Shown: one piece after another, positions 8,056-41,090 of the stretch
Layout: each line of letters starts with the position of its first letter
Numbering within the stretch: the first letter of the stretch is position 1
Origin: Sphagnum compactum
Lineage: Eukaryota
Assembly: GCA_965153455.1 (NCBI GenBank)
Contig: OZ234493.1
Span: forward strand, 23,302,213 to 23,366,212
DNA length: 64,000 bases
Reading direction: 5' to 3'
Notes under the pieces: generated by a model
What the model was told of the DNA's origin: nothing
What the model saw: only the letters and a program-made list of their open reading frames with translations
The model's database searches: none
Program-made: the position numbers and the translations under genes

Positions 8056-10918
8056 GCCAGGCAGAGCCATTAGACAATTATGCGATTTATTTTTATTTTT
8101 ATTTTATTTTATTTATTTATTTATTTTCATGATTTCTATTTGTTTAGAACACAAAGTGGTTTTGAAAATTCAAAGCTATATTATCTGATCAGAATTATGG
8201 GATTGCTGTTTTTTTTGTTTTTTTTTGGTGGAGAATTTTGGCTATTTTGTGGAAAGAAACTTTGAGGGAAAAAACTTTGAGACATAAAATAATAATAATA
8301 ATTTAGTGTAAAATATGTTATTTCAAAAAAAAAATTGCCACATTTATAAAACATAATCCCTTTTTTTTGTAATGTATGGTGTCCAGCACCAACAATTTTG
8401 TGGATAACTCCAAAATAATACAAAAAAGGATAATGCAAATAGGGCTCTAGTGGCAGGAAAATATTGAGAGGAAGACAGCAAAAGGAGAGAGATTATGTTG
8501 GCTTCTAGGGCAGGAAAAAAATAAGAGGTAGATAGCAAAAGGAGATTGAGTACTTTGCTGTCTACAAATAAAGGAAAGCAGCTGCCATAAGAGATTTGAA
8601 AAATCCAAAAAGCAAAATTTGTAGTTTCTTTGCCCAAGAGAAGGAATTGTCTATCTTTAGGACAGGCCACAAAATGATCCAAACATAAACACTTCTCTGC
8701 TATGAATTGATCTTAATTAAACTAGGCCCTTTTCCTATACTATGAGGACCGTAGCATGTAGGAGACGGGCCTAAGTACATGCCCTTCCGTGATTTGAGAT
8801 CTGCACTGTAAGTCTAGCATCCCAACTTCCCTTCAGGATGCTCAAATTGTGTGTCTTGTTATCCTTAGGTTTAGCATTTTCATTTGGATTGTAGAATTGG
8901 GTTAGCCTAAAGAGCATTTCAAAAGTTGCAGAGTTGCCAAATTTGAGTGCTTATGGCAAAATTTTGTTTTCTATTGTACGTTGGTACTTTAGTATACAAA
9001 TCCACCTTTGGCATCTTGTTTGTTATTCCCCATAAATTCATCTTCTTGACTTGGTACTTTTTAAGTGTTAGAATTCTTTAAAGTACATTTTCTTCTTTAG
9101 TCTCCCATTGTGGAAGGATGTCTTGACATACATCCATGTGGTGACAATTCTTGTCTCTTTGAGTTCCTCCTAGAACTCCAAGGGTTGACCCACTCGAACA
9201 GAATTCAAAAGGGTGTCATCATCTCTCTTTTTTCAAGATTTTGCTCTTAACCTGTTACAACTAGTTAGGTTTGAATTTCATGTCTTTATTTGGTCTTTAC
9301 TTGATGCAATGGACCCATTTTCTTTGTAGATGTTACTTTCTCTCTTTATTGTAATAGATTGCAATTTGCATCATGTTGATGAAGAAAGACCCTGTATATT
9401 CAAAACCCAGGGATGGGAACCCATCACTCGAACTACAAGGCAAATAAATGTCATGTCATGCTTGAGAACACATGTCATGAAAGAAAATAACAATCTGGAC
9501 ACCCCTAATACACTAATAAAATTAAAGACCATAGACATTTCCATTTTAGTGACTTAATAGAGTTTTCCTTAAAGTAATCATGTCGTCACCTTGTCTGTGG
9601 GGCCTGTTTTCATCCCTATCCATCGTTTTTTTTTTTTGTAAAAAATCATCGAAAGGCGAAAAATTATAGGTCAGTGTAACAAGCCTTTGTAAAGTCTAGG
9701 GGTAAAATCAGAAATTTTTGCCTAATGCGGTAAGTGCCAAATGGTTACATCACCACTTTACATCACAATCAAAACCCTAAATCGCTTATCACTATCACAC
9801 CGTTAACCACTATTCGTCATCGCTGCACCCTGCCAACATGAGTTTTTTGTCACCTTTGCTGCTTGTGTCCTATGTACATTGTCAACAATGATGATGCAAG
9901 AGGAGGAAGAATTCGCCAACACTATGTTTAGAAATTAATAGTACTAAAAATTTCTAGGGATTCATGATGCATTATAATGAAATTTTATGATATTAGACTT
10001 TTCAAAACATTTACAAGTGATGACTCGCCCACTGCAACGATTCTAAACCCAATAAATTCGCCAAAGTGGCTTCACCTTAGAAAAAACAAATAGCCACCTT
10101 TGTTATTTTATGTCTAAGTTGTGTGACCACATTGGCAACTACTTGGACCTTTAAAAGAAACATTGTCACTATCCCCTCTTTGAGTGAGGTCTGCAAAATA
10201 AGGAAGTTTTATATCATCTAGGTATGAAATGCTGAAAGTCAACATTTAACGCACAAGGTTCGAAGTAATTATAGTAGTTGTACATGTAGGAGTAGTGAAA
10301 ACATATGTAGCAGCAGTGGAAGCACTTGGGAAAAAGGAAAGACAGGTGAGAACCGGATCAAACTCAGTTTGGCACAAAAAGTGGTGCATTTCTGACTTCG
10401 ACACCCCCTTGAAGGCTAATGTACTTTTTTACAGGTTTCTTTAAAAATCTCATCTAGTTTTGGACCAAACTCAGGCTACTGGTGCCGTGTTGTCCAGACA
10501 TTACGAAAAACTCTAACATATTTCTTATTTCTTAACTCGTACCCAACAGTGATCATGAACAATTGTTGCATAAATACAATCAATGTGTTGTTGATCAATT
10601 ATGCAAATCTGTAAAATTTCAGATTTCAAAACGCAATGCAGAGAGGATCTCTTAACACCATCCTAACATCTCCTAACTTCCATCTCCACTTGAGCATAGT
10701 ACGTAGTAACAACAAGAAATCTATTGCGTAACTAATACTATTTTGTATGAAACAAGCATACCAGGCCAGAGTTGTCCATTTAAAGTACACTTTCCCCAGC
10801 GAGCTTCAGTCAAGACCCTTCCAAAGCATGCACTCAGGACTCAGCTCCCTCACTGTTTGTAGGTGACTGAGTAGTGCTCTTTTCAGCATCCTCCAAATTG
10901 AGCTACCGTGATATGGAT

Positions 10919-11967
10919 TCATGCATCCCAAACTTCTTTGTAGACTGTTTTGAACCTTTTGAAATATTCATTGTCCAAACTACATAGAGCCAGCACTTGC
11001 TTTCCAGAAACAACCACATCCAGTACCTGAAGTGAATCACACCACTGTGTAGCATCCACTACAGTCTAAATATGCAACCTTGATTGGAAAGGTACTTAGT
11101 ACCATGGTTCCTTCCAAGCTTTATCCCTACCCTGAGTTGGTGGCCACAAAATTGAAGATAATTGTTTAGCCTATGGTGCTCTATGTGAGTGTACAGGGGA
11201 AAATGAACTCACTTGGATGCATCATCAGATTCTCATAATAGATATCATGCAGACCTATAGAAACTCGGGCTTGACATAGAACTCTGAGCAATGCATCCAA
11301 TCTGTCATAACACACAACTAGAAGTACTTCTGAAGCCATTAGTACACTACATTCCAGCTGTCTATGGTACATGATGGCCTTCTAGAGTGCTGCACAGATT
11401 TGCATGAGAAGACCATATTGACGATCACTTTACTATCCATCATGGTTGGCCACCACCAAGCTTTCGAAGGTAAAACACTACCGCACAATATCCACTCAAC
11501 TCTCAAACAAGTTGGTTGCCGATGTCCATAACATAGGCCCAGGCACAAAATACTTAATCACAACAAAGGGCTTCCCTGGCACACAATATTACATGGTTCT
11601 AGGTTTTTCAGCATTTTCTAGAAGCTTCCTATCCATCCAAGAAGCTCAATAAACTAAAGAAGAAAAGATGTATCCAACACAATCATTTAACAACGCTTTG
11701 TGTTCATCAAAACAGAAAGACACTTCAAAAAAGAAATTTGCAAGGGTGGCCTATGAGGTAACCAATAAAACACAAAGGAGAGAGGGAGGGAAGAGAAAGA
11801 CAAATCAATTCCTTGATAGCATACAAGAGGATTTCGGACCTCCACAAAAGAACTCAAAAGTGATCTTGCAGCCTCTACTTTGGTACTGTCCAAAGAGGCT
11901 TGGCAGAAGGTCCTTCATCGTGTAAAGTAGCATCTCCACTTTAGATTGCATATCCATATATGTGCGG
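10919..11967 (-). pseudogene. 3'-terminal exons of an unidentified gene (disrupted fragment)
   Basis: Exon-like segments 11967-11840 and 11026-10919 have canonical splice sites and join in phase (..STKVEAARSLLSSFVE|VLDVVVSGKQVLALCSLDNEYFKRFKTVYKEVWDA*). The upstream exon has a stop or frameshift in that frame. Family not recognised. Confidence 0.45.
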
Positions 11968-12606
11968 CTGGGATGGAACATTGGACTTGTATGGTATGTG
12001 AAAACATAAAATTCACATTGAACTCATTGCCTACTACCTATCATGCATCTGATACACACAATTTATCTCAAGTTGCAGTTTTATGCTACATACTCCTATG
12101 TGTTTGCATAAGGAACTACACACTGGAAGATTTGTTATGGACTAGCTTGGTTTACATCACAAGCAAGTCCACAACTGTATAGATCTAGCATAACTGTCAA
12201 AAAGCAATTTCAGTTCAAATTCAAAGAGAAACTACACACCACGAATTAGAAGCACCCCTTCCTTCTCACTTAGTCACAATTGGAATCCCAGCCAACAGGA
12301 ACAATATGACATGCACTTGATACATGAGCAAGATTTAAGATATAATGATTGATCCATTTGTAGGTGCAAGAAAACATAGAAAGGCCCCCTTCACCTCAAG
12401 AAAAAAGTTATCATTCCACACAGCGCAAGAGTCAATTCATACCAACCTATCGGTGACATGCATCAATATTAATTATTGGTTGATTGCAATGCTTTCACAA
12501 AAGAAATAGAGAAAAAAAAAATGCAATCATAAGGGGGAGGAAGGCAGTTTATCCTTGCTCGTTGTTTGAAGGAAAGTCGATGTTACACTGATAACTTCGG
12601 ATTAAA

Positions 12607-12975
12607 TTGATGGCCGAAACATTTATCAAATTCTTACCCAATGAGATAGTAACAGAAATTATATTTCCTAAAATCATCCGTCATGCAGCTTTGATAAATG
12701 GAAGATATCAAACTCAGGAAAAAAGAGAGAGACTTGATGAAATATTCGTTATGAGAATGTTCAACAAATTATGGAAAGAAATTATAGATAACACGATTGA
12801 ATGGTTGGCATTCTGCCTAGCAAATGAAGAATGCCAAAAATATGAATGGAACAAAATGACATATAGTGAAATTTGCACCATTTTATCTTTTGAAAAAAAC
12901 TTTCAATTATTGAATCTGATGCACATTCAAGATTCAAAATTAAACCTAACATATTATTCAAAAAAACAAATTTGA
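12607..12975 (+). CDS. Intronless AT-rich ORF with an F-box-like N-terminal motif (probably repeat-borne or pseudogenic)
   Basis: FLPNEIVTEIIFPKI...RMFNKLWKEII resembles the F-box LP-x-E-I...V-x-K-x-W pattern. It is followed by (AATTC/GAATT)n repeats at ~13110-13175. Confidence 0.35.
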   Translation: MMAETFIKFLPNEIVTEIIFPKIIRHAALINGRYQTQEKRERLDEIFVMRMFNKLWKEIIDNTIEWLAFCLANEECQKYEWNKMTYSEICTILSFEKNFQLLNLMHIQDSKLNLTYYSKKQI

Positions 12976-13255
12976 TTACAATAAAATTATTATCTCTACA
13001 TTTAATGACATGACGGTTCCAAACTAAAATTTATTTAGCGCATTCCCAAATGAAAAGGCACTAAGATTTTGAATACATTCTCTAACAATTTGCATCCCAT
13101 TTGTCTTTGATTAAATTTGAATTCAATTCAATTCAATCTGGATTCAATTCAATTGTTGAATTGAAATTGAATTTAGATGAATTTTTCCGTTGAAATTTTC
13201 CTTTCTGAGCAATAGCAAGCACCAAGAAGTTGAAAGTTCAAGAATAATGACACAC

Positions 13256-15852
13256 CTTTCAGAGTTGCCATTGCATGATCCATGCTTTGAACAACGTCCT
13301 CGAGCAGGGGCACCCCCATGTGATAGTTGAGAGTATCCCCATACCCCTTCAAGTGATGCATCTGCAGGTCATCTGCCCACTCCAGCAACTTGATCTGTTT
13401 GTAAAACAAACAAATATTACAGTGAGTAGCTCTGTGAAGTTCCCGATGCGTCAAATACACTTTCAATCACATATGAATGTAAGCCCAACATCATTCAGTT
13501 GCCAAGATTTGACAGTCACCATTCATTTGTGTGATTTGAGCGATCCAGGGTGGACTATTTGTTGGCAAAGCCTCCAAGGATGTCCTCCATTGTGACAAGA
13601 AAGATCATGGCATAGCCCCCCATTATAAGCATGTGAAGGTATCTGAGGGAAAGTTAAAGAAAATTACTTTAGACATGGATTTCCTCTTGAGAACACTGTG
13701 ATGGATTACCCTGTACAGTGGAGTTGTCAGGTCTATTGTGAATTCCTATAAGATTCTTTAGAGGAGAACTTTTAACAACCTTCCAATTGATTTTTAGGAT
13801 TCCAGACCAAATCTAGTTTGCCACACAGCAACAGAATATGCACTGACAAAAACAACAAAAGACCAGAGTCATCCACCTAGTCCGTCTAGAAACATTTTCT
13901 TTCTCATGTCAAATTGCAGTACAAAATTGAAGGATACCTGTTGTCACACAAATCAACACCAGCAGTAACCGCCTGCAGCATCTCCTCTGAACAGATTCCC
14001 AGAAAAAACAATCAGTATTTTTACTTTGATAACCATAACTTGAAAAAACTGACCAGGATATAGTACTACAACATACAATGCTACGAAAGCATAGCAGTTG
14101 CAATAAAGGAATTCAGCCCATATTTGCAACCATGACCATGTCAAACTAAAGTACACTATGAACTAAAGATGCACAAAATTGGACATCGGAAGGTCAGTAC
14201 CTGGCATTCCCAGCCCACTAACATGGCGAGGCTTTTCCATTGGTAAGCTTGCCTTTTACATCACCAGATAGAATTTAATTGCCACTTTTTTCTAGAAGAA
14301 AAAGGCTGCTACAACAATGACATAGAAGCAGGTGACTGATGAATGAACTTAGAAAAGAAAGAAGCATGTGTGAGAGAAGTGAAGGTGGATCATATAACAA
14401 AGATAAAGAACTACAGTGATAGCTTCTAGAACAGGGCGTTGGTCCTCTGTAGCTTCACCAAGACCAAAGCCACCCAAAGAAAAACCTGCAAAACCACATG
14501 CTCTGTCACTTACTGTTTATCTCAAAGTGGTTGGCTCACAACCTCATCAGAAGACTCATTAAGAAAAAAATTCTCTTGATTTCAAGGATTTGACAACTCA
14601 TCCACACAGAATTAGCCAGTTGGGGTTCATGCACTAAAACAGAACTCAGAATGTGGTTTCACAGCTTGGCAAGTGATACAACAGTTCATGACAAGGAGCA
14701 ATATATCATGCTTAGACATTTTGGGAAATATGGAAAGGAAGAATGAAGCAGGCTTGTTCCCTTGTTGCTAATGTTATGGTAGACAAAAAACAAGTAGTGC
14801 ACCTGCTACATTGGGAGTTGCCATTTGTTGAGCAGAGCGTGTTCGCTGCTCAACACTGCTTCCTCCAACCACAACACCCAGACACCAAATGTCCTGCTTT
14901 GCCCAGATTATGAATCACATCAGTCGGCTTCAATCTACCCAAAATAGGTCATGATACAAGTCATGCAAGATAAAAGGCTCTGAAGGAGTAAAGCAAAGTA
15001 ATATGATATACAATTGACAGAGAAAGGCAATGGTCTAGCCATTGTAAGGTGCAACCAATTGACATGCGGTTTCGCTTTTCCAAGACCCATACAAGAACCT
15101 CATCAAGTAAGCTAGCCCATAAATTAGGTTTGCATGTATTGATGACTTCCATGTACTTGACAGGCCCAACCTGCAACATATTCACCCATATAGAGAGTAA
15201 GTACTTAAACAAACAGCAAGACTTGCAGAGCACAAACTTTTATGTTCCACTTCTTTGAAGCACTAAACTGTTGTGTAACTTGGGATGGTGGGACTGCAAT
15301 GCCTTCTAACCTTGAGAATCTCAACCAGTTCATCAGGTAAACCATAAGGACGAGAAACATTCTTAATAATAATTGCCTTCAAAAATCTGGTATCTGAAGG
15401 AAATAAATCTCTCAAACAAAAAAGATCTGCACCTGAAATTAATGGAGTTGGAGAGAGGGGGAAGAGATCCTCCTACGATTCAGCAACCAAAAGAGGTCTT
15501 GAAAGAGGCCCCAAACTTGGTGGTCCCCTATCTATCTGCTTCATCCATGATCAAGTCCTGCCCAACTGCGAACAATCCATGTTCAGGTAAACACAACATC
15601 TTATGTAAGCTTCCCACCTCCGCAACCACCTCTGGAAGTGGACTGTCCAAACTACGACCAGAGTGTTATGAAGACCCATCTTCAGTCTCCAGCAGTTTTG
15701 AAGTTAGCAACACAACCACAAACAACTCCTTTCAACTAATTCCAGACTGAAAAAAATTGGAAGCTTCTTATCAAAGTCAGATAAGCCAAACCCACCTCTC
15801 CAGAAGTGAAAATTCCACAAGCATGATCAACAATGTCCAACAAAGATGCCTC
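13256..15852 (-). pseudogene. Two consecutive exons of a MINPP1-like histidine acid phosphatase (multiple inositol polyphosphate phosphatase), fragment
   Basis: Exon 15852-15796 (EASLLDIVDHACGIFTSGE) and exon 13394-13256 (IKLLEWADDLQMHHLKGYGDTLNYHMGVPLLEDVVQSMDHA) join in phase 0. They match the recalled plant MINPP segment QEASLL...C.LF...E.VALLEWTDDLE...LKGYG.SLNY.MGVPLLEDV. No other MINPP exons were seen. Confidence 0.8.
13600..15651 (-). pseudogene. QTRT2: Queuine tRNA-ribosyltransferase accessory subunit 2 internal fragment (about 7 exons), pseudogene
   Basis: Exons give SPLPEVVAEVGSLHKML..TKFGASFKT (15651-15477, in-frame TAG 15528-30 and TGA 15480-82), KYMEVINTCKPNLWASLLDEV..EKRNRMSI..TLQWLDHC (15170-15012), GVVVGGSSVEQRTRSAQ, FSLGGFGLGE, SLPMEKPRHVSGLGMPEEMLQAVTAGVDL and YLHMLIMGGYA, followed by a frameshift. 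N- and C-terminal exons are absent. Confidence 0.85.
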
Positions 15853-15897
15853 CTGTGAGGACCACAAAATGTAAATAGCAGCAAGAGCACCAAATAT

Positions 15898-17215
15898 GAG
15901 CAACCCTCTGATGCTTTTTAACAGAGGGTAGCCTTTATTCTTCAGACAATAAGATTGGCCATCTAAGAGACAAAGAAAGCTTTAGAACTACAAAGCCTCA
16001 AAAACCTGTAAAATGGACTATCGATAACTCCAAACTTGGTAGTAATAGAAATATTGGAATGACCATGAGGCATACAAATCATGTTGATACCTGCATACTC
16101 TGGTTGAGAACTTTATCAAAGATATCACAGGATATACCTTGATGAATTTGCTTGACAGCTAGATCCAAGGAGTTACAAGAGAAGCCTTTAGAAGTACAAT
16201 TCAACTCACAAGATGTTTTTGGGGATATGCCACCACCAAAAGAATCTTGTTTAGGTACATAGAACTCTCAGAGTCTGGAAAGTCAGGAACAAAAAGATCG
16301 TCCACAAACCTACAAACAAGGGATAATCTATGAAGAACAACAAGACAGGTGCTTCAAGAGGTGCTTGAGAAAATTGAACTCATAGAAAAAAGATATAAAT
16401 TAGCTAAATAGACAACACAATTGTCTAGAAGAACAAATTATGTAACAACAAATCCAGCTCAGAGATTATGTCTGAAGCCTCCACAACTTTAAAGCTATGT
16501 AGAGTTTCAAACAAATTTATTTCTTCTTTGTTCTTAAGCCACAAATACCCGAAGTTCAAAGCTGTGCTTTGAACCAACAAAAACTTTAAATGATGAAGTT
16601 TAAACATCTGATTAAACACTTTATTAATCAGAACTTTCATACAATCTTTAAGATCTGTCAGGTCTATCTTAGTGTATCCAGTTGAAAAATCAAACAATTG
16701 GAACAAGAATGGAGAAGCTTTACCAACTTTTGTTCTCAAAAGAGTAAGGAATTATATCATATCCAGTACTCCTGTAGAGTCATTAAGAATCCAACTACGA
16801 ATAGAAGGAACATGAACCTTTTTGAGTTTTGACACCCAAAGGTATTTAACTGTGGGAAAAATAGCTTTGTAGAAAGAACTAAGCCACTCAGAACCTTCAG
16901 TATGGGATGTGGAACTGGCTGCACAAATAAATCTTAGTTTAATCAGATTTTTATGAAACTTCCAGACATCACAAAGAAACAGAAGAGGAGGGCCACACTT
17001 TCCACCACTAAAATTATGAGCCTTATTACAAGAATGATGAGATTTAAGAATTTCTCCTTGGGCAAGATCTGAGATCACATATGTACCAACTGGGGAATTA
17101 AACTCAAAGAAAACTGAAGAAACGTAGAGCTTTTTACAAACAAAAACACAATTATTACTATACTTATCCATGTGAGTAATAACAAAAGAACAGACAATTG
17201 AGGAATGAGAATTCA
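15898..17215 (-). mobile_element. Penelope-like retroelement RT fragment (degenerate), same family as 38600-40620
   Basis: Broken ORFs [34 protein letters not shown] and FDFSTGYTKIDL, plus thumb region to KNKGYPL. Nucleotide-colinear with the plus-strand copy at ~38770-40205. Confidence 0.85.
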
Positions 17216-17809
17216 AGACAATTAGAGAACATATTTATTTGGTAACAAACTATCCAATTGTGTGGGGTTTATATACAAACACACAGGAAGACACACTCCC
17301 AAAATTAAGGGACACCAAATTGTTCATATAGAGTTACTGACCTGAAGAAGGCGATTGCCACCATTGTCACTCATGTTGAAAAGATGTAATTGCGGAGGTT
17401 TCCTATGGAAAGACAATGATTGAAAAAGAATTCCATATCCATGTTCTTGCTCCTCATTCATACCTGCACCTTCCTCCCAATCCTTCACCCCCCACAGACC
17501 ATCACCAAATAAGTTGCATATAACAGTGAAACTTCATTATTCAGTTATATGGCTCATAAACAAGATAGACAGGATGGATGAAACGATACAAGTGAGCAAA
17601 AATACTTCCACGTTTTTCTAACCCATTTCACTTCTCATTTACATCTTGTGCATGCTAATTATCCGTAGCATGGATTAAGCATGAAATCAGAGTCAGTATG
17701 ATATAAAACGAAAACACAGCATTGCAGACTCAAACTGCAATTGTTTGGCTGCTTATGTTCATGCAACTTAGGAGAACCAATCATATAGATATAGAAAGAA
17801 GGACATTAC

Positions 17810-17997
17810 CAGCAATAAAAAGCAAGGGAAGCTTCACGTAACTCTGCCTTCCATTCCTGTAGCATCTGATGCATTTGCTCCTCCAACAATGAAACATCTT
17901 CAACCAATTCTTCCGCCGTGCTTGTTGCAATTCCGACACTATGCCTTGAAGATCATCCACCCTGTTGATTGCTCTTGCACGAAAATGTTGTGATCCT
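17810..17997 (-). pseudogene. VOZ: VOZ (vascular plant one-zinc finger) transcription factor N-terminal fragment, frameshifted
   Basis: GSQHFRARAINRVDDLQGIVSELQQAR, then after a frameshift EDVSLLEEQMHQMLQEWKAELREAS. This matches the recalled VOZ N-terminus KNRVDDLQG...ARKE...DV.LLEEQV.QMLREWK.EL.EPS. Confidence 0.8.
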
Positions 17998-18624
17998 TTG
18001 TTGGCTTATGTTTTGCAGCTGCAATCATTTCCAGTCCCCCAAAACATCACTCCCAATTCCCTGACAAAAAAGTACTCATCATATTCACATCACACAAAAC
18101 TGACTGAACATGCAGCTCCAAGCAGTGGCCAATCCACATTCTTTCCCTCATGATTTCAGAACATAATGCAAGCCTACAAGGCATCACACTACAAACAGGT
18201 ATTTTTTGAGCTTTGCAGTAGACTTTTGCCTGAAAATGAAAGCACAGTATGAAGGATAGAAAACCTTTGCTCTGATCCATTGCAACCTACAGCTATCTTA
18301 ACTAAACCAGCTCCAATCAATGAAAATTATCATCACTAAAATTAAATTTAGACAATATGTTTAGCTAAAGTTTAATTAGTCATAAAATTTACAAAATTTA
18401 ACAATTAAGTTTATCAAATAAGTTCAATCACTATGTTTAACTTATTAAATTAAACTAGTAGGTTTAACCATTAAAGTTAAATCATTAAGTTTAGCCGTTT
18501 AATTTATGCATTAGATTTAACCTAATTTTAACCACTATGTGTCACCTAGGTTTAAGTATTGTGTTTAGTGATGTGAAATAAATGTGTGAAATAAAAAAAC
18601 TTGATACAGTTGAACACCTTCGAT

Positions 18625-18681
18625 GGTGTAGTTCATTTGTAAAAACTTGGATTATCATTGTGAAAGTTTGAGTTCAATTCC
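18625..18681 (+). repeat. Degenerate tRNA-like head (Pol III A/B box-like), possible SINE remnant
   Basis: 'ggtgtagttcatttgtaaaa' (A-box-like) and 'gagttcaattcc' (B-box-like). No closed cloverleaf. Followed by (taggt)-rich low-complexity sequence. Confidence 0.35.
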
Positions 18682-19149
18682 TTATACTTCTAACTTATGT
18701 GCATGTTTAAAAACCTAAAGTAAGTAGGTTAAGGTAGTTTGGTGAAGTTTGGTTACGTTAAGTAGTTTTAGTTAGGTTAGGTTAACACCTACCTAAATGT
18801 CTTTTTTTGACCTACTTAAACCTATTTATTATCAATTTAAATTTTTTTAAGTCAAAAAATAATTTTAGTTTAGTTATAAATTTGATCCAATCAAATGATT
18901 CATTGTTTATTAGTTAAATAATTAGTCACCATGTTAGTCAAAATGAAAAGGTCCAAATTGACTACCTAGTCACATTGATAGGTCCAAATTGACAATGTGG
19001 TCTTTTTTACACCTATCATTTTGAATTTTTTTTATTAGAAAAACCAATAAAAAAAACCATGAATTAATAGTGAATGGATTCTTTTTCAAGTTCAAGCACC
19101 TTTTCAAACTCTAATTTTTTTTCAAATGATGATGAAATCTTATATGACA

Positions 19150-19670
19150 TGGATGAAAAGGATATAATGTTCTTTTAATATGAATTTGTGGCATGTAATG
19201 TTGGAAACTTCTTCAACCCACATGAGATGGATGAGGGGAGTGGGCTATTAATGGACCCAATTGTGGATGTTCGATATGTGTTGATAACAATGCAAGCCAC
19301 CCCAATATTGTTCAAGAATTTGACAAACTTTATTGCCACAAAATCTAAAAAACTTCCATTCTTTGCAGTGCCTACCATCACCTCCCCTGTTAAGTCCATA
19401 AATGAAGCATGTATTGTTTTTGGAACACCTTAAAAGTTAAGCCCTTAACACAAGTATTTTGTTCATAAAACATGACAACATCACAAAGTATGATTCTTTC
19501 ATGTGAAATTGGTCCTAAAAAATTGTGTTTGATGATTTTTTTTTGATTCATGATGTGTTAATGTTTCAATTGTGAATGAGATCTACTCAACTATGGCCCA
19601 AAAGCGAGCTACCTTGGGCACTCATTTGTAGGAATTATTCAAATGCATAAGGTTCATTAAGGGAACCTTG
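19150..19670 (+). mobile_element. Degenerate DNA transposase remnant, probably PIF/Harbinger-like
   Basis: Broken frames LFKNLTNF..VPTI, KLSP, KHDNITKYDSFM*NWS and a GFI(D)GT-like 'ggttcattaagggaacc' near 19650. Many stops. Confidence 0.4.
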
Positions 19671-20380: not shown

Positions 20381-22089
20381 TTCATTACAAGTCATGGATG
20401 AACATTCAAATGAATGAATTTTATGACATTGGCATTTGTGACACCTTTGGCTGAGATCCAAAAACCATAAAATGACAAGGTTCATCGATCATAATTCAAT
20501 GAATAGAAAAAAAACATATGCATTGTGAACAACACAATTATTTTTGACCGCACGTGCTTATTCATTTATATAATTAATAAGGTCCCCAAGTTATTACCAT
20601 GATGTATACATCATTTAACATTTTGCATTTAAAAAGATTGGTGCCAATATTTTATTCATGAAGGTGATTACTTTAAGCTTCTACCAGTGGATCCAAGGTA
20701 TTTGAAAAAATAAATGTTCATGACAAAGGATCGGGAGATGGTAATTAGTTTCCAGTTCAAATTTAAATGCCATACAAACATACAACAAAATATATGTCAA
20801 ATATTAAGTGTAAGTGGAGTGGGGTACTAGTGGCTTGAAAAGAAAACAAAAGAGACTGAGTCATCAAAAGATTCAATAGCACAAAACCAAAATTCAACCA
20901 TCTTTTCCAACATGTTACCTTACCCTATTAATTTCTTACATAGGAGGAAAAGGGACCTCACATATGAGGTGATTGATGACCATCTTCCTAATCATCACTA
21001 TTAAAAATCTAGGTTTTTTATGCCTCTAGTATCATTATTACAATGACATATGTGATTGTGCATGTTGTCCAACATGACAGAAGGAGGTATTTTTTGTTTG
21101 TTTTGTCCCCACCCCAAAAGGAACAATGTCTAATTTAACTCTACTCATTTTCCATTCTAGTCAAAACATTCCTATTAATATGTGGACTACTCAATGCCCA
21201 TGTGGAATAGTGGTATCAAGTAGTGTGACTAATTTTAGTCACATCAATTAATTACATGTTTAAGCAACTACATGTTCTAACTTGTGCCATAAATTCATCT
21301 TTTAATTATTTTTGAATTGTTTTCAAGTTGGAAATCCTCATGTGCGTTGTTCTTATGTTCATGGCTATATATCCATCTTTGCAACTAAAAGTGCATCCTA
21401 GATCTTAGAACTCACTTAAACGTAGGATGTTGTTTGCAAGGCTCTTGGGAAATGGAGCTACAACATTTCCACTTTTGTTATTGGCTTGTCAATGGGGCCT
21501 AGCCTAGAACTTGGCAAAATAGATAGCCTACTATCATGATACTTATGTAGTTTTGGCACAAATGATTTCTTTTTCATTTTGCCAATTTTCCCAGAAAAAA
21601 TAAGACTTTATGTCAAAAACTTTGAAATTTCAATCAACATGTAATCAGTGTAGCCAAAGTTACACCCATGAGATGTCCAAAAATGTAATATAAATGTGAT
21701 CAATCTAAGCAAAAAAACAAAATGAAACTTGTGAGATATCTAATGATTTTATTTTATTTTATTATATTCCAAATTTTTCAAAATCTAAAACCTGAGAGGC
21801 AAATCAAAAATTTAAAATTATATTAATTATTTGGCACATTAATGTTGAATTTCCCCACTTTAGTTTTCAAAACACGTTTTTTTAATACAACTATGATATT
21901 GATTCTCAAGCATTATAACAAGACCCCTATGCACAAGGACATTGGATGATATCACACATGGACAAAACAACATGGTTGTTGAACAAATAATTACTAGTGG
22001 TAACCCGTGCCTGCAAGGCACGACACGGCACTGGGAAAAAACTGGGAGTCCAAAGGAGACCCCAAAGAACCCCATACTCACAAGAAAAA

Positions 22090-25000
22090 TCACTGCAGCA
22101 CTTCACGGTAGACCACATTACTGGTATAAACGCTAGCAAGGGCCCCATTCAGAGCCGCCCTGCTGCCACCCCGGACCAGCACCCAGACGCCCCGCCGTGA
22201 GCCGCACCGAGAGAAAGCCACATAAAGCTGCCCGTGGCAAAAAACAGGCTTGGGCAGGTACACCCCCACTGTCTGCAGTGTCTGCCCCTGGGCCTTGTTG
22301 ATAGTCATGGCAAATGCAGGCCGCAACGGGAACTGCCGTCGGCGGAGAGTAAAAGGCATCCTCTCCGTGTCAAAGGGAATGATGCTGAGGCGGGGAATGA
22401 AAACGCGCCTGCCCTTGTCCGGTCCTGTGGCAATCTCAGCATCAATTATGTGCTGCATCAGTTTGACCACAATAAGCCGAGTGCCATTTGCAAGGCCACC
22501 CGGCATATTCCGCAGCAAAATCACGGGGCAGCCTTCCTGCAAGGTCAAAGTGTGGGGTGGCACCCCTGACATGCTGAGGGAGTTTAGAAACTCGGTGGGG
22601 TAAACTCCTCTCTGTTCGCCTTGCACAACAGAATTAGCGCTGTAGTACATGCGGCGCTGTGCTGGTGTGCCGTCAGGTGTGGTGAGGTCAAACCGATTCA
22701 TGATGGCGGTGTTGATGCTGTCAACGTCCTCGTTCAAAGGAGTTAAAATGGCCCTTTGGATGATGTGCTCATTGCGTGACTGCGAGTCTGTGAAGAGGCC
22801 AAGGTCGCCGTAAACTTCATCCACCAAGTTATCAATGGTGTCACCTTGGCAACACATGTCTTCTGGGATCAAAACAGCCTCCTCCCCGACCTCAGGAGAG
22901 ACTTGTTCTGTGCCCTCCCCAATGCGCTGCAAGTAGTCTGCCCAAGCTTGTTGTTGCTGGGCATCGGCTGCGGCGTTGGCTCCGCCTTGTGCTAAAAGCC
23001 TTTGAACACGCATGTTTTCATGCAGGTGACACACTTTAACACGGTGCCAAAGGACTGCGGACCTCTTGAAACTGGCATCCACAATCTGGCCCGGGGAACC
23101 ACAGGCAATATCTGCCTAAAATCACCTCCCATGACAACAACCTTGCCCCCAAAAAGCATGTCCTTTAAGGCAGGGTCAACAGCACCCATAACATGCTGGA
23201 GCGTGCGGTTCACAGCCTCAAACACATGCTTGTGGGCCATGGGTGCCTCATCCCACACAATGAGGCGTGCAGCCCGAATCAAGGCCGCTTGTGGACTGTT
23301 CAGGGGAACATAGCAAGCAGAGGAGTCACAAAGGCCTGCTACAGGAATTTTGAAACGTGAGTGAGCTGTGCAACCGCCCTCCAAAAGCAGGGCTGCAATG
23401 CCAGAAGATGCCATCGACAACACTATGTCACCAGTAGAGCGCACCCTGCTGAGTAGGCACCCGTAGAGGAAAGTCTTGCCAGCCCCTCCCAACCCATCAA
23501 CAAAAAAGGTTTTGTCCAGCGGCTTGGGGTCATGGACCGCGTCAATGACATTGTCATAAATGGAGCGCTGGTGCTGATTTAGCAAAGGCACATCCCGAGA
23601 AAGCTGCTGAGCTTGCCGTGTCACATTGTACCTGGCCCGCTCTTCGGATACAGCGACGTCCCCCGAGGCAGCCAGCTGTGCAGGGATAGGCAGCTCAAAA
23701 TCCTCTAGGGTTTTCCCCCCTTGGGCCTGCAGCAGCAGCTCCACTTCCCGCAAGCCCTGGTCAAGGATGGCCTGGTCCAGCTGCCGGTTGGGCGTTACCT
23801 GCACGACGCAACGGGGGCGGGAGGGGGGGTTATAATCCAGAAGGGCACATTTATTCATGCTTACAACTTGCAAGGAAATCGACCATTCAATAGAGAAGTT
23901 TCCAGGCAGCAGTTCAAAGAAGACAACAGAGCACAACTTATACCATCACAACCCAACGAAAGGGAGGCTTGCAATATACACTTCCTTTGTGAAGGCCTTT
24001 TCGCCACTCACCTGGCGTGTTTGGTGCAAGAAATCCTCTGTAAGGGCTCCCTTATGCCTGTCCCACAGCCGCCCAGGATTGGTGACGTTGTTGAAAATCA
24101 GCAAGCTGGCAAAAAGCTGCCGCAAGCTTCTCGGCAATTGCACCCCAGCAGCTTCTGAAAGGCACTAGTCTCATTCAGTATCATCTTGCAGCAAGCCATG
24201 TGCAAGGCATGCAGCTTTAAAAGTGGGGTGCACAACTGTGGTAGGCATGTGAGGCCGGTGGGTAGTTCTAAGGTCCTCAAAGCATGTGGCCCCTACAATG
24301 TGGGTAAGCAAAATTCGCAGATAATACCGCTCGCCCTCTGAGGGTTGCACAAAGTACATGCGCCCCACAGTTCCTAATGTGACATGATTGTTTCGGCCTG
24401 CACCCCGTCGCCCCGTTGCCCTTTTTCGGAGGTGCCACGCCTTTTTGGATTTGCTCCACACAGCGATTTCGGGATAATCAGGGTATATTGTGGTCAGCGC
24501 AACAGGGAGTGGCGGTGCAGGGTCGTTGTTGTTGCAAGCCAAAGTGGCTGCAGCCGCGTATTCAGATTTGGCCTTTTGGTTGAAGTCACACCACCTAGTC
24601 AAAGTGGTGGAGTTGTTGCGCATCATGGCTTCCCCAACCGTGGTCCCCTCAAGAAAGTAAGTGGTCTGCTCATTAGGTAGATGAACAGCCAAGCGGTAAA
24701 CATTGGGGTGCATGTCGTGCAAGTCAAAGGCAAAAAACCGATGGCAAGCTTCGCTGGCACTGACATACCGCCCATCGAGGTAATTTTGGACTTCATCCTG
24801 GGCGGCAAGCACATTGTTCCCATCGGCCTCACCTGTAGCCGCCTGAGGCGCTACAGCCGGCAAAACCCCAGCTTCCGGCTGCACCACTGCCAAAACACGG
24901 TCGTGACCCTTGTAAACATACTTGTAGAGGTATTTCATAGCTGTGATGGAGCTGCAGACCTCAACATTGATGTGGCACTAGTACCGCATGGTCAGGTAGG

Positions 25001-27340
25001 GGTTATACGGGACGACCCAACGGTTGTCAAAAACAAAGCCCGAGCTGCAAGGGGGAGGGGGCAGCAAGTTGTTAGTCAAGGGGAAGCATCTGGTTTTAAG
25101 CTGGTTTGGTCTTAGACACAAACACTTATGGTCAGGTGCACATGACAACGACTCACTTGCCAAATTTCCAACAGCTGCACTTACGTGGGGTGGGTGAAGG
25201 TCCTGCCGTCGTCTCGTCGCCGGTAGGTTGGGTAGCTGCCGGTGGAGTCCTCAGTTTGGGGCTGGAAAGTCTTGGGATAACCCTTGCTACAAGCCCCATT
25301 CACCATGCAAGCACATGAGGGATGTAAGGCCCCACAGGGCCCATGCAACATGCGAGATGTCACAATGTTATAAAGCTCGGGGTGGGTGGATTTGTCTTGA
25401 AGTTCAGCACACACGATCGGGTCATAATCGCTGCTGTCACGCGGCTTGTCTTGGCTGCATAGAATGATCAAAATGTGACCGTGCGGCAAGCCCCGCTTCT
25501 GCCATTCTACAACATGGATGTCGGCCACCGCAGTGCCCAAAACACCATTCTGCAAAAGGTCTTTGAGGAGGGCATTGAGCTTCATCTTGAACACCCTGGA
25601 TGTCAAGTCAGGGCGACCGCTGGCTTCCTCTGAAGGCCTCAGCTCATGCAGGATCTCTGTCCAATTTGGGTTGCACATCATGGTTATGAATAGGTCAGGT
25701 TTCCCAAACTTTCTGACCAAGGCCATGGAATCCTGGTAGAGCTGGTTCATGTCACGGGGGCTACCAGCAAAAGTGGCTGGAAGGACCACCATGCGCCCAA
25801 AGTTGGTGCTATTAACCCCGTCTTGCTGCATGGCATCTACCATTCCTTTATATTGGTCAGCACGCAGGGTGGTCTGGTTGAGGCGCACCCACCGCAGCCG
25901 CTGGCCCTCAACCTTGGAGTACTGGTCAACCACCCACTCTTGATATAGCCTATTGCCATAAGTGAACGTGCTGTTGGTGGGAGGGTTGCGATCATGCATG
26001 AAGTAAGCCGCGTATTCCCTGGCAGTAACCTTGCGAGCGATGCGCCCTGCGGCAGCTCTTCTGTTTTGGCCCTTGCCCCTGCCCCTACCCCCACCCTACC
26101 TCCACCACGCCCGGGGTCCACTGCCGACTCCGCATCAGGCTGTTGTTCATCTTCAGATGGCTGCTGTTGCTCGTCCTCAGAACTTAGCCCATCCACAACC
26201 GCAGGGGTAGCGTCAGTAATATTTGGGTGCCAGCCGGGCTCTCCGTGTGGGTGGAACAGGACAAAATGCAAAGGGTCATAAGCACAGTGGGCATCACTAA
26301 TCCTCCATAACCCCCCACCCTTAGCCCGCACCCTGATGTCTCGTGGATTGCTATCACCATCGCCTGTGAGCAGGCACAAAAGGGAAGATAAATTAAGCAC
26401 AGCCGGGACAATTGCTTGCATGATGGAAGGAACGTGTTGTCGAGGAACGTAACAATTAGGACGGCCGGCACCATAAAAAATAGCACAAAATGGGGCACCA
26501 AAAAGCAGCCATGCAGCCACCCCATTCACTCACCAGGCATTAGGCCGGCCACCTAGCTGGATGTGGGGGCGTTGTATGTGCTTGCGAAAAGATACGGTGG
26601 CAGCGGGGAGGCGTGCACCAGGGGTAGGCTCAGAAGTGAGCAGGTCTCGCAATGGTTGAGGAGGAGGAATGGGGAAGAGGGCCTCACAGCTACAAGATCT
26701 GCCTTTAGCACAGTAAAGGTCTGCGTGTCCTCGGGAAGCCTCATCAGGCCAAATCATAGCTCGGCAATGCTGGCACTCGGCTATCCTACCCCCTATGTCA
26801 AGCACCGGAATACTGGCCTCATCAAATTCTGAAAGGGGGACGCAGGCTGTTGTGTGCAAATCTCGCTCACCCCGCGCCTGTCGGTGGCGCTCGCGGTTGT
26901 GGTCCCGCTGCTGCTGGCGCTACTGGTTCCGCTCCTGGTCTGTCAGTCGAGCACGGGCCTCTGCGTGCTGCTCGCGATTGCGGTCGCGTTGCTGCTCCCG
27001 CGCCACGTCGGTCAGCCGGGCACGGGCCTCTGCGTTCTGCTCGCGGTTGCAGTCGAGCTGCTGCTTTCGCTCCTGGTCTGTCAGCCGGGCACGGGCCTCT
27101 GCGTTCTGCTCGCGGTGGCGGTCGCGCTGCTGCTTCCACTCTTGGTCGGTCAGCCAGGCACGGGCCTCTGCGTGCTGCTCGCGGTTGCGGTCGCGCTGCT
27201 GCTTTCGCTCCAGGTCCGTCAGCCGGGCATGGGCCTCTGCGTTCAACTCGCGGTGGCGGTCGCGCTGCTCTTTCCGCTCCTGGTCGGTCAGCCGGGCACG
27301 GGGCTCTGCGTGTTGGTTGCGCTGCTACTGCCGGGATACA
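22090..27340 (-). pseudogene. Helitron RepHel (HUH Rep endonuclease + Pif1-family helicase), disrupted
   Basis: Zn-finger-like CQHCRA. HUH motif EWQKRGLPHGHIL. Catalytic Tyr motif KYLYKYVYKGHDR. Helicase motifs GLGGAGKTF, VWDEAPM, GGDFRQILPVV, RRQFPLRPAFAMTINKAQGQTL and HGQLYVAFSR. Introns 26533-26364, 25184-25045 and 24011-23799. Stops at 26553, 24978, 24171 and 24165; frameshift near 23085. Confidence 0.95.
26900..27310 (-). repeat. 69 bp coding tandem repeat (~6 copies, 23 aa unit) in the RepHel N-terminus
   Basis: A 'gcacgggcctctgcg'-like motif at 26951, 27020, 27089, 27158, 27227 and 27296. Unit TDQERKQQRDRNREQNAEARARL. Confidence 0.9.
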
Positions 27341-27526
27341 CCTGACCTTCCTCTTGATACATTTTCTGGCCTAAGCTGCATAAGTTTACAATTCAGAAGG
27401 CATCTAGTTCAGCATAGTAAAAAGCTGATTCAGTTTCCTATCTTAAGGCTTGTATTTTGTACTCATTGGGTTGGTGCGTCGGTGAAAGTTTGCTATGTAG
27501 TAGCCACTTCTTAGGCTGTTTTATTG

Positions 27527-27673
27527 TTGTTGGAACAACACAAAAAGTAATGATATTGAGCACTGCAGACCATTATAGTATTGGAAAACTTAGACTTTGT
27601 TGTTAGAACAGCACAAAAAGTAATGATATTGAACACTGCAAACCATTATAGTATTGGAAAACTTAGACTTTGA
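27527..27673. repeat. ~73 bp tandem duplication inside the Helitron 5' region
   Basis: 'aaaagtaatgatattga.cactgca.accattatagtattggaaaacttagactttg' occurs twice. Confidence 0.85.
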
Positions 27674-28602
27674 GGGGCTAGTACTTGAACAGAAAAGATC
27701 ATAGAAATTTGGCCTGCTTTATTCAAGTTCCAAGTTCTACCAATGCTCCTATATGCAGATATATTATGCAGAACCTACCTACCTTCACCTCCCTACCTAC
27801 CTACCCACTTACCTACCTTTGCTCATTGTGGCTGCAGTAGACTCCAGAGTCCAATAACCAATAGGCTACTACAACACAAGAACATGACCTATCTGCACCT
27901 ATTCAATGGCACAGGGGTTCCATTCCAATGCAAAAATTCTCCCAAAATGTTATATATTTTAATATACTTTACAAAGGGCTTTTTTGGAGAAACATATACA
28001 AAAGTTGTTGCCAGATTCATATCATTGCAGCTGGAAAAAAGAAAGCCTCTGGTTTGCAGATTTACAATAAGAAGCTTGATTTTTGAACCTCTGAAAACTG
28101 ACAAATCTTCTCTCTACCATTTTATTTTGAAAATAATATATAAATAATCCCATTATGCGAGAGAAAACTTTTTTTTCTGGAAGGGTTGTGGATTTCTTTG
28201 ATGACAGTATTGTTTTGTTGTTCATGGTCGATTCAGATGGTGTGTGTGTGTGTGTGTGTGTTTTTTTAGGTTATTAGAACAGTTTGCTGTTGGAGTTCAG
28301 AAGAAGATGAAACTGGAGTCAGAGAATGTGAGAACAAAGAGTACCATACCAAAATGAGTATAACAAAAACAAATATTTTAAATGATGACAAAAATATAAG
28401 TAGTTGTAGGATCACACGGAAAGAAAGGGAGAGTCAAGGGAGAGAAAAACAGTTTAGGTTTTCCGATGCATCATCAGAACCTCGAAAAGCCATGGTTGCA
28501 GCGTCCAAAGTGTAAACCTCTTTCCCTCCCTCCCGCTCGTTATGCTTCAAGCGTGGTCGACAATCATGACCGGCAAAAGCCACAAAACGAAAGCAAGCGC
28601 AA

Positions 28603-28770
28603 GGATCTAGGTTTGCATGAAAGTTGTCAAGAAGCAGCCATCTGCGGCCTCTTCGTCGTCTCTTTGCGCTTCGTCATCTCTTTGCGCTGGGATCTGGGTT
28701 TGCATGAAAGTTGTCAAGAAGCAGCCATCTGCGGCCTCTTCGTCGTCTCTTTGCGCTGGGATCTGGGTTT
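28603..28770. repeat. Tandem duplication in the Helitron 5' subterminal region
   Basis: 'ggatct.ggtttgcatgaaagttgtcaagaagcagccatctgcggcctcttcgtcgtctctttgcgct' occurs twice. Confidence 0.85.
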
Positions 28771-30226
28771 CCGGACCTCGGCGGACGAACAGTTGGGATC
28801 TGGGTTTCAGGACCTCGGCGGACGGACAAGACCTCCACTGTCAGGACCTCGACGCACGGACGCACACACGGACGCAACAAGTGACTTTATATATAAGATA
28901 TTCATTACACTCCAAAGCTCAAAATTCTTACAATCTTGAAGACAATCATCACAAAACATTGTTGGCAAAACAAACAAGTATAACTTTGTTGAAAGAAACA
29001 AAGAAAAAAATGATATTTTTGTTTTTTATTCCATTCTAAATAAAAATGATAATTTTGCCTTTTCTAAACTTCTCATTTTAAAGTTTTGATTTACAACCCA
29101 AATGCAAAAGAAAGTTATTCCACATGTCTTCTAGTTGTTTCATTAAAAAATACAAATACAAATACAAATCAAAAGAGCAACCCTTTCATTTATCATTCTT
29201 TTTCAATTCTTTGAAATTAAGCACAACAGAATGGTATCCCATCAATGTAAGCCAAAATTGATTAGCATATTGTCATGTGTTCTATGGCATTATAAATGTT
29301 CAATTTTTCACAAGTAATTAACACCTAGTTGCCTAAATATCTAGGTAATCTATGTGCATATCAATTTTCAAACTAATCACAAATTAATGAATGATTACAT
29401 GAATGACTTGGCAATGTGCATACCAATTAGCATTTACCACATAGGTGAAGTACAAATGTGGCATGTTCGTACAATGTATGTCATTGTCCCATGGAAATTG
29501 AAGTTACAGGTTGTAACTTTCTTGCAACAAAAGGACAAAATCAAATATTGTTGACCCAAACCTTTCAATTGATAATAGACGTTTCAAATTGGTGATCACC
29601 ATCAAATTACATTATAAGAAATCATGGCTTTTCAAGTTGTTCAACTTGAGTACTTTATTTGTTTTGATTAGAAATTTGGTCAATTGGATTTGAAGTTTTA
29701 GTTGTTGAATTGACATGCCTGTTCCAACTATTTCAATTAACTAAAGTGGCCTTTTTGAATACTTGGTCATATTTGACATTTAGTAAAATAAAACAAGAAA
29801 TGGACACCTTTAGTAAAAAAAGAAGTTATAACCAAATGAAATATTTCAAATTTGATATACATGATACTATTCATAATAACAATAAAGGTGTACATTGTTG
29901 TTTCATATACAATGTTCCCAAATATATATGTATTTGTGGACAAAGTTGTTAAAAGGGGTTAATCATAGTTTTTACTATAACACCATGCCAAAACATATTA
30001 CCAATGGTGGTACGTAGGGGATAAAAAATCATTGCCTCCATTATTTAGGAGAAATTACCATATTTATAAAGTACCAATTTATAGTCAATGTTTTAGGTTA
30101 GGTGACTTTATTAACCACCATTAATTAGGATTTTTGGGGCTTTGGTTGGGAGTTCCACCATTTATATAGTGGAAGGGATTAATGGTTTAACCCAAATCAT
30201 TCACCATTAAACCAAGTAGTTTCATA

Positions 30227-40200: not shown

Positions 40201-41090
40201 GCTCAATAAGGAAAACATCCTTTTTGGAATTGGAGTATTCCGAATGATTCTGTATAAAGTCTTGTAAGTGGGGAGCTTCTTGTAAGCCCACTTGGTCTTT
40301 GTTCTTCTCTGCTGTCCTTTTCTGTGTGTTTTGTCTATCCTGTTGTGTTTTCCTGTTTTTTGTTACCTCCTTGTGTTGTTTGTTGCTAGCCAGTAGTGTG
40401 GCGGAGTCTTCATGTTGCTTCCAGATTTGCAGCAGAAACTAGGTATGCAGGTTACTGTCTTCACTGGCCTTTACCCACTGTAGGGAGCTGATGAAGTCAG
40501 TGCGAAAGTTGTGATAGAGAAGTCACTATCATACACGCTACTGTTGATGGTACCTGAACAGGTGTGAGACTGTTGTTCATACTGCTTTTGTTTTTTTTTG
40601 TTTTTTGTTTCTTGGTCCTTTGTTTTCTGTTTTGTCTTTCCTTCTTTGGAAAATTCTGTGGCTGGTTGAAGAAGTGTTAACCTTGCTTTGCTGTTTCTTA
40701 ATTGTGAGAATGGGGATTTCTTGATTCTTGGTTGAAGAAGTGTTAACCCTGCTTTGCCTTTTCTTTATCGTGAGAACGGAGATTTTACAATTCTTATGAG
40801 GGATATTCCATCTTATGACCAATATGCACTCAGTGCTTATCTACATTTGCTAAAAGTCCAGGAACTTTGATGGCACTGACACGATGAATGTACATACATC
40901 TTCATGGTGATGGCAGAGTCTCTCTCGAAATCTATTTGTCATCTCCAGTATGAATGCAGCTTGGTTAGAAACCAGCTGGTCCTTTTTTGTTCCAAAAAAC
41001 AACAGTGCATAGTAACATTTTCACTGAATCATGTGACAGATATATGATCCAACAAAACGGTGGGAGCGGTATACAATTCATGGAGACTGA
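34259..41090 (+). CDS. XCT: XAP5 CIRCADIAN TIMEKEEPER (FAM50/XAP5 family), 12 exons
   Basis: Exons 34259-34423, 34940-35005, 35299-35363, 35816-35931, 36081-36168, 36502-36578, 37002-37063, 37238-37369, 37585-37638, 37844-37909, 38113-38187 and 41040-41090. Translation runs [15 protein letters not shown]...[13 protein letters not shown]...[17 protein letters not shown]...[13 protein letters not shown]...[10 protein letters not shown]...[16 protein letters not shown]...[41 protein letters not shown]. Confidence 0.97.
38600..40620 (+). mobile_element. Penelope-like retroelement (Naiad/Chlamys-type RT, degenerate) with 3' repeat, in the last XCT intron
   Basis: RT motifs [17 protein letters not shown] and RFVDDLF, then NFLDL and thumb [23 protein letters not shown]...NKGYP. 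The ORF ends at 40267 with no C-terminal GIY-YIG. Upstream remnants [13 protein letters not shown] and [14 protein letters not shown]. Confidence 0.85.

Follow-up and report, generated by a model that had tools for sequence, protein, structure and literature searches.

A 7-kb stretch on the minus strand of Sphagnum compactum contig OZ234493.1 is, in our reading, a non-functional patchwork of copied gene pieces and a retroelement fragment, built in steps and dispersed at low copy number on a transposon with ends that can no longer be recognised, be it of the Helitron type or another DNA transposon; we give this reading a probability of roughly 0.5. The stretch lies in a window of 64,000 nucleotides (nt; positions 23,302,213 to 23,366,212 of the forward strand, assembly GCA_965153455.1), to which all coordinates below refer. 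At its core, two exons of a MINPP gene flank an intron in which 76 nt have given way to 2.2 kb of another gene, QTRT2, and joints of this composite recur in independently assembled moss DNA. Whatever carried it, the mosaic is of a known kind, either a decayed transduplicate or a repair patchwork, and represents neither a new mechanism nor a working gene.

Composition of the mosaic

The original prediction saw in this stretch minus-strand fragments of unrelated genes that had kept their introns. This description held: the pieces are genomic copies and not cDNA, they are co-oriented, and the MINPP and QTRT2 matches have E-values far beyond chance. A Pfam scan of 85 stop-to-stop minus-strand open reading frames (ORFs) from 10.5-18.5 kb of the window gave just two relevant matches, both weak, namely TGT (PF01702, the family of QTRT2; E 0.0065) and His_Phos_2 (E 0.17). 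Reference proteins were then mapped onto the window by tblastn (P0002 for MINPP and P0012 for QTRT2), and the named best matches for the window were Sphagnum proteins. With this agree the sequencing runs containing it, some of which bear the label moss metagenome, and the stretch looks like peat-moss nuclear DNA. For comparison, metagenome contigs were scanned with the translation of the MINPP exon and its upstream intron as query; 123 stretches matched, and the 12 that encode a relative make up 11 loci (L001-L011). Along the minus strand, the pieces are the following (aa, amino acids).

17810..18028, minus: VOZ-like first exon (pseudo-exon), with ATG at 18028-18026 and GT after 17810, found by tblastn of P0013, P0014, P0016, P0017 and P0019
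17193..17697, minus: 505-nt segment with no family assigned, the first part of the block shared with a related genome (L001/L002 alignment begins at 17700/17697)
15897..17192, minus: reverse-transcriptase-like retroelement fragment, copy A, degenerate and lacking a stretch that includes the GIPMG motif region
15750..15902, minus: MINPP part a, an exon (parent aa ~253-290) and the first ~40 nt of the next intron, 92% identical in nt to L004-L008 (tblastn of P0002)
13517..15749, minus: intron-bearing QTRT2 fragment with seven exons for aa 66-292 of 400, inside the MINPP intron in place of 76 nt (tblastn of P0012)
15650-15471, minus: QTRT2 aa 66-125 (exon 2), tblastn E 5e-24, two in-frame stops
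15170-15015, minus: QTRT2 aa 124-175, tblastn E 8e-25
14893-14801, minus: QTRT2 aa 177-207, tblastn
within 14516-14352, minus: QTRT2 aa 206-233, tblastn E 2e-12
14252-14202, minus: QTRT2 aa 231-247, tblastn
13987-13922, minus: QTRT2 aa 248-269, tblastn
13641-13558, minus: QTRT2 aa 265-292, tblastn
13240..13516, minus: MINPP part b, with ~116 nt from the end of the intron, the exon for aa 286-333 and ~17 nt of the next intron, 92% identical to L004-L008 (tblastn of P0002)
12026..13239, minus: segment with no family assigned, which travels with the QTRT2/MINPP joint in L009 (L009 4927-6427 against window 13540-12026, 86%)
10677..12025, minus: final segment with no parent gene assigned, in which the ORF 11059-10922 ends with a stop at 10921-10919

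The 508-aa Sphagnum balticum MINPP protein P0002 matched the window with aa 267-290 at 15858-15787 (E 9e-5) and aa 286-333 at 13400-13257 (87.5%, E 3e-22), and the rest of this protein was not found in the window by tblastn. Family membership is given by PF00328 (histidine phosphatase branch 2), which P0002-P0010 carry; the window holds a two-exon fragment without the catalytic N-terminal part. Members of the P0012 cluster are named queuine tRNA-ribosyltransferase accessory subunit (QTRT2) in several Sphagnum species. By tblastn, aa 1-65 and 293-400 of QTRT2 were not found in the window, and the C-terminal zinc-site region is missing.

The two genes are nested. The pieces had been predicted to follow one another as VOZ, reverse transcriptase, MINPP, QTRT2 and a last gene, and this order has to be revised, since the QTRT2 block sits between the two MINPP exons, within their intron. 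The parental intron measures ~230 nt and has 76 nt at the place where the window has 2.2 kb of QTRT2 DNA; no target-site duplication accompanies the exchange. Against a processed pseudogene or retrocopy speak the introns kept in the MINPP and QTRT2 pieces, the alignment of the intron to the parental locus and the MINPP 3' joint, where no A-tract was seen. Serial 3' transduction by a retroelement was rejected because QTRT2 is nested in MINPP and not appended to it, and because A-tracts are absent from the joints.

The 5' part of the stretch is less securely named. Its first exon (18028-17810) matched seven short unnamed proteins, themselves first-exon ORFs, at 65-78% identity (combined E 6e-21), but two or three frames are needed to follow this match (18029-17898; 17913-17821), and frameshifts and a stop break the exon. 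Of the VOZ N-terminal exon that had been proposed, an exon-like minus-strand match stands, whereas the name VOZ was returned by no search and is presumed by us from the N-terminal motif. An Atlas search with P0013, a relative of this exon, gave no usable match, and a literature search for the motif found no paper. In the first-exon protein cluster, the source record of one member, P0040 (79 aa), gives it the name glutamyl-tRNA reductase, which looks like a mislabel. Pfam matched nothing in the segment 17193..17697.

The reverse-transcriptase-like piece is one of two in the window, the other lying far upstream of the mosaic:

38853..40205, plus: reverse-transcriptase-like retroelement fragment, copy B, inverted with respect to copy A and better kept, with GIPMG and FVDD motifs, at the same place in L001 and L002

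Copies A and B, 78.5% identical over 1366 columns, both represent one 1.35-kb repeat and begin and end at the same points of it. Copy B gave a weak RVT_1 match in Pfam (E 0.093), a weak and sole PDB match to telomerase reverse transcriptase (E 0.024) and, in the Atlas, reverse-transcriptase-like clusters, the nearest of which include rotifer reverse-transcriptase clusters. These matches make the piece reverse-transcriptase-like, as the original prediction had it; its further label of Penelope-like is plausible. A GIY-YIG endonuclease domain was not seen in the Pfam-scanned ORFs. Both copies are also found in the related genome, and the pair brackets the XAP5 side of the region. Where copy A meets the MINPP piece, the joint shares GCTCA(T), a microhomology of 5-6 nt that is carried by both the L010-type MINPP sequence and retroelement copy B.

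At the 3' end, the last exons of a further gene, ending in a stop, had been announced. The ORF 11059-10922 with its stop is there, but the identity of a gene was not confirmed: its sole relative, P0020, matches 11059-10677 and is itself a read-through ORF, from another DNA copy, and Pfam and PDB searches gave no match. Within the mosaic, a plus-strand ORF (12595-12972, 126 aa) runs uninterrupted in the window and L001-L003 (89% aa identity) and has stops in L009; it matched no family and is probably not a gene.

Related loci and history of the block

Intact parents exist for both named genes. L006-L008 carry a complete MINPP gene with all exons (aa 1-508) and L004-L005 most of it, while a 400-aa QTRT2 is annotated in several Sphagnum species, in two of them on linkage group 4. 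The parental loci L004-L008 resemble the window, at 92%, only at 15902-15750 and 13516-13240, that is, on either side of the QTRT2 insertion.

L001, L002 and L003 were counted as one comparator genome (L001 and L002 are 99.9% alike, and L003 equals L001 in the MINPP part). Against window 17700-10677 they are 94.5% identical with gaps included and ~96% when only aligned bases count. L001 and L002 stay collinear with the window beyond the block, upstream over 39851-36679 and downstream to 6968. Between the XAP5 side and the block, however, the comparator has 2.7 kb of unrelated DNA as against 19 kb in the window (36678-17698). That interval in L001 and L002 holds no match to Helitron proteins (Rep or helicase) and no VOZ-like exon. 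At the edge of the block in L001 and L002 the VOZ-like exon is likewise missing, the 110 nt after it, down to 17698, are specific to the window as well, and the joint at 17698 between the VOZ-like piece and the block is without independent contig support. In L003 (2392-6299; 10532-13539) the mosaic is split at window 14663/14666 and its upstream half is inverted, which may be a real inversion or a chimeric metagenome contig. At 10677 the window is without ~437 nt that are present in L001 and L002; L003 has a longer related insert there, and the P0020 ORF reads into the extra sequence. This boundary was considered as an element end and rejected, being a ~437-nt deletion in the window.

Could the joins have been made by an assembler? 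Nothing was found in favour of such an artefact. Separate metagenome assemblies (the collinear L001 and L002) carry the same order and the same joints over 17697-10677, L003 has the same sequence apart from its inversion, and L009 has two of the joints. Mis-assembly is therefore excluded for 17697-10677, and chimeric joining by the assembler is hardly credible as an account of the mosaic. Within 17697-10677, then, no joint is spurious, and all are inherited.

More distant copies were found as well. L009 is a diverged partial copy that aligns with window 15416-12026 (3.4 kb) at 81-86% identity and shares both the QTRT2/MINPP-intron joint and the MINPP 3' joint, and its flanks (1.7 and 8.8 kb) match nothing in the window and hold neither XAP5 nor Mlo. 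It was also considered as the orthologous locus of a distant species, which was rejected since the neutral core aligns while the flanks do not. Two insertions distinguish L009 from the window (3384-4014 and 4183-4927, ~630 and 744 nt); the second falls exactly at the QTRT2/MINPP joint, and the alignments flanking it overlap by ~10 nt, which may be a target-site duplication. L010 and L011 hold the MINPP fragment only, 85% identical to the parent over 639 nt, with the 76 nt kept, with a frameshift of its own, and reaching past both MINPP joints of the window. Two read-through ORFs of other contigs, P0011 (QTRT2) and P0020 (final segment), closely resemble no locus among the 11, so that single pieces exist in further copies. 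A Pfam search of 57 ORFs from L009, L010 and the L001-specific DNA found nothing relevant. An ORF-free repeat, 68-79% identical among L007 (1954-3424), L010 (12489-14117) and L009 (13470-14119), lies within 5-8 kb of MINPP sequence in these loci and was not found in the window.

In the metagenome contigs, the copies share internal joints but no common ends. Shared derived changes tie them together. All copies of the MINPP fragment have an Arg-to-His codon change that the five parental loci are without, and in a tree of 282 columns the fragments form one clade (support 0.79). For QTRT2, the derived residues T and C are common to the window, L001, L003, L009 and P0011, and both in-frame stops of exon 2 to the window, L001 and L003.

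In the original prediction the stretch, opening with an N-terminal piece and ending with a C-terminal one, resembled a composite transcription unit. As a coding unit it fails: its first exon and QTRT2 exon 2 are disabled, and the VOZ-like exon does not adjoin the block in the related genome. Aligned with L001, the window shows 95.5% identity over 1083 exon-like sites and 96.0% over 1682 intron-like ones; the two diverge alike, so that no coding constraint is seen. The same observations bear on a working locus in a wider sense, running from the VOZ-like exon to the final ORF and yielding a chimeric protein, a long non-coding RNA or small RNAs against the parents. The common orientation of the pieces, the ATG in the first and the stop in the last, and the keeping of the block in two genomes would all suit such a locus. 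Against it stand the frameshifts and stop of the first exon, the two QTRT2 stops common to both genomes, exon-like positions no better conserved than intron-like ones and the separate position of the VOZ-like exon, and we consider it very improbable. Equally little credence is given to a bolder proposal, in which the block would be a conserved non-coding locus, transcribed through its co-oriented, antisense-free QTRT2, MINPP and VOZ-like copies and feeding small RNAs that tune the parents, or in which the reverse-transcriptase fragment would mark an undescribed Penelope-like way of picking up unspliced genomic DNA. The shares of sampled words of the window in sequencing runs (0.10-0.12 in 6 metatranscriptomes, 0.55-0.74 in 8 DNA runs of organism A and 0.36 for organism B) carry no evidence on expression or copy number.

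For the non-functional patchwork, the loci show a series of steps, most simply ordered as follows. A ~0.7-kb exon-intron-exon piece of MINPP was duplicated at the start, a stage represented by L010. Next, a 2.2-kb QTRT2 piece (exons 2-8) replaced 76 nt of the MINPP intron, with the MINPP 3' end joined to other DNA; both joints of this step are common to the window, L001-L003 and L009. The composite was then copied to at least one unrelated locus (L009), presumably by the carrier that dispersed it. In the lineage of the window, the reverse-transcriptase fragment came to abut the 5' side of the MINPP piece, unless it was lost in L009. Thereafter the whole block drifted neutrally, the same locus being inherited in two related moss genomes. 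The VOZ-like exon would be a later neighbour, brought next to the block by the insertions that set the window apart from its relative, the intact Helitron described below being one of them.

The neighbouring Helitron and possible carriers

A candidate carrier lies close by. Besides an Mlo gene (minus strand, 537-4394) and a XAP5 gene (plus strand, ~36977-37405), the window contains, ~4 kb upstream of the mosaic and outside it, the following element:

21994..28898, minus: apparently autonomous Helitron (Pfam Helitron_like_N E 8e-57, PIF1 E 1e-54)

As judged from its sequence, this 6.9-kb element combines a Rep domain with a PIF1 helicase, its coding region is split over several ORFs, and its G+C content is 0.53 against ~0.35 around it. 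The 3' end is marked by a 7-bp hairpin (CGTGCCT/AGGCACG), 8 nt, CTAG at 21997-21994 and then T, and G+C drops exactly there from 0.55 to 0.30. The 5' end, TC after A at 28898, is less certain in its placement. A short G+C-rich element on the plus strand (~30232-30637), full of GGCACGG-like repeats, has an end that matches 14/18 nt of the Helitron 3' end (…CCCACTAG, then T) and may be a non-autonomous relative. Helitron proteins gave weak PIF1-like matches in L006-L008 only among the 11 loci, and none in L001-L003, L009 and L010. The matches in L006-L008 (~4650-5527, 25-43% identity) lie on the same strand as the parental MINPP gene, 1-2 kb before its start, and may be a Helitron remnant beside the donor gene.

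Could this Helitron have taken up the mosaic as 3' cargo by read-through of its terminator (end bypass), if not all of it then the VOZ-like exon with the 4 kb of AT-rich DNA above? The Rep and helicase (RepHel) of the Helitron lie on the same strand directly upstream, and the related genome has 2.7 kb in place of the interval 36678-17698, to which both the Helitron and the VOZ-like exon belong. Yet the canonical 3' end at 21994 is intact and lies exactly at the G+C fall, no terminator-like site is present at 17698, and the block 17697-10677 is found in the related genome without the Helitron. Because the comparator holds the block without it, the block predates the Helitron; with the Helitron possessing its own ends and the block being older, the mosaic is therefore not part of the adjacent element. 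End bypass is accordingly improbable.

There remains the choice between some other, decayed carrier and no transposon at all. In the latter case, serial double-strand breaks would have been repaired from ectopic templates, through filler DNA, synthesis-dependent strand annealing (SDSA) or microhomology-mediated break-induced replication (MMBIR), and the other copies would be products of segmental or whole-genome duplication whose flanks have since turned over. Serial repair capture was one of the two origins offered in the original prediction, and the joints, which are of the repair or template-switch type, fit it as they also fit filler-DNA capture by Helitrons: at QTRT2, 76 nt were deleted and 2.2 kb inserted without a target-site duplication, and elsewhere there is a microhomology of 5-6 nt. 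The failure to find element ends and the count of only three fragment lineages would also be expected without a transposon. Three observations sit less well with it. L009 shares 3.4 kb of neutral DNA with the window at 81-86%, yet both its flanks are unmatched and without XAP5 or Mlo; at least two further diverged single-piece copies exist (P0011 and P0020); and the co-orientation of all five pieces has a chance of ~1 in 16. We thus regard repair without any transposon as a real possibility, though short of even odds. It is because the composite and single pieces recur at unrelated loci without flanking homology that we lean, slightly, to a mobile carrier, and the co-orientation agrees with this.

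Several results weigh against the mobile carrier that we prefer. No element termini had been noticed around the mosaic at the outset, and none came to light, neither Helitron 5' or 3' ends nor terminal inverted repeats (TIRs). When up to 4 mismatches were allowed, the terminal motifs of the Helitron had no further match on its strand of the window or in the 11 loci, the sole other loose match being the plus-strand one at 30637. A scan of the minus strand at 5-30 kb for a hairpin followed by CTRR-T found a single site, 21994, which is the neighbouring Helitron's own end; it demanded a perfect stem of >=6, so that eroded ends would escape it. A search for TIRs around the mosaic, over 6000-22500, yielded only short AT-rich pairs that are put down to chance. 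Neither CTRR nor a hairpin marks the ends of the L009 homology. The boundary at 17697 in the L001 comparison is equally without terminal signals. The deletion, the templated insertion and the microhomology are equally expected from transposon-free break repair. Copy number is low, with three fragment lineages and the parents among the 11 loci. For a single origin of the MINPP fragments, the tree gives weak support (0.79), and its branches are unequal, those of L009 and L010 being much longer than that of the window. Finally, the comparison DNA consists of metagenome contigs throughout, in which paralogy and orthology are judged from divergence and flanks and not seen within one genome. The first of the two origins originally proposed, that the stretch is cargo of an exon-shuffling element, is not demonstrated, with no ends and three fragment lineages among the 11 loci.

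Comparison with known systems

In maize, rice and some animals, chimeric arrays of gene-fragment copies have been well documented; a literature search found no description of such arrays in peat mosses. Among the known systems, the gene-fragment-carrying non-autonomous Helitrons of maize (PMC3288121) and insects (PMC6544945) resemble the mosaic in several respects. Like them, it holds several co-oriented, intron-bearing fragments of unrelated genes, added singly, one of them internally, with short homology at a joint; related copies have extra captured pieces, and Helitrons of the canonical type occur in the same genome region. Unlike those elements, the mosaic and its copies are without a detectable 5' TC, 3' hairpin-CTRR or A/T insertion site, and about three fragment lineages only are seen, with mosaic copies that are old (14-19% diverged). 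Stepwise internal acquisition with short homologies at the junctions is the filler-DNA model of Helitron capture (insects, PMC6544945; maize, PMC3288121). This model and stepwise capture in maize predict families whose members differ by internal additions (PMC6544945, PMC3288121). The related copies of the mosaic do differ by internal additions, as these models predict.

The likeness to filler-DNA or template-switch repair lies in a deletion at the acceptor site with a templated ectopic insert, microhomology at a joint and no target-site duplication. The insertion of filler DNA in plant non-homologous end joining was reportedly described by Gorbunova and Levy in 1997, and MMBIR and fork stalling and template switching (FoSTeS) are replication-based forms of template switching. 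Typical filler insertions are tens to hundreds of bases long. One insert of the mosaic, in contrast, measures 2.2 kb, and the composite turns up at a second locus as well, something that repair alone leaves unaccounted for.

Pack-MULEs and other Pack-type TIR transposons carry chimeric arrays of genomic gene fragments that are often transcribed and non-coding. The mosaic is likewise a chimeric array of genomic gene fragments; unlike theirs, it is flanked by no TIRs or target-site duplications. The closest cellular relative of Penelope-like reverse transcriptases is telomerase reverse transcriptase (TERT), and the 1.3-kb piece has reverse-transcriptase motifs and TERT as its sole PDB relative, at the weak E-values of 0.024 and, for the Pfam family, 0.093. 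It differs from Penelope-like elements in that the scanned ORFs showed no GIY-YIG domain and no full-length element is present. A literature search yielded no paper linking Penelope-like elements with Sphagnum.

For annotation, the comparison carries a practical warning, since gene finders are prone to false MINPP-like, QTRT2-like or VOZ-like calls at the mosaic. The history of the locus is unusually legible, in three stages from MINPP only through the nested QTRT2 to a dispersed partial copy, and could serve as a bryophyte worked example of stepwise capture.

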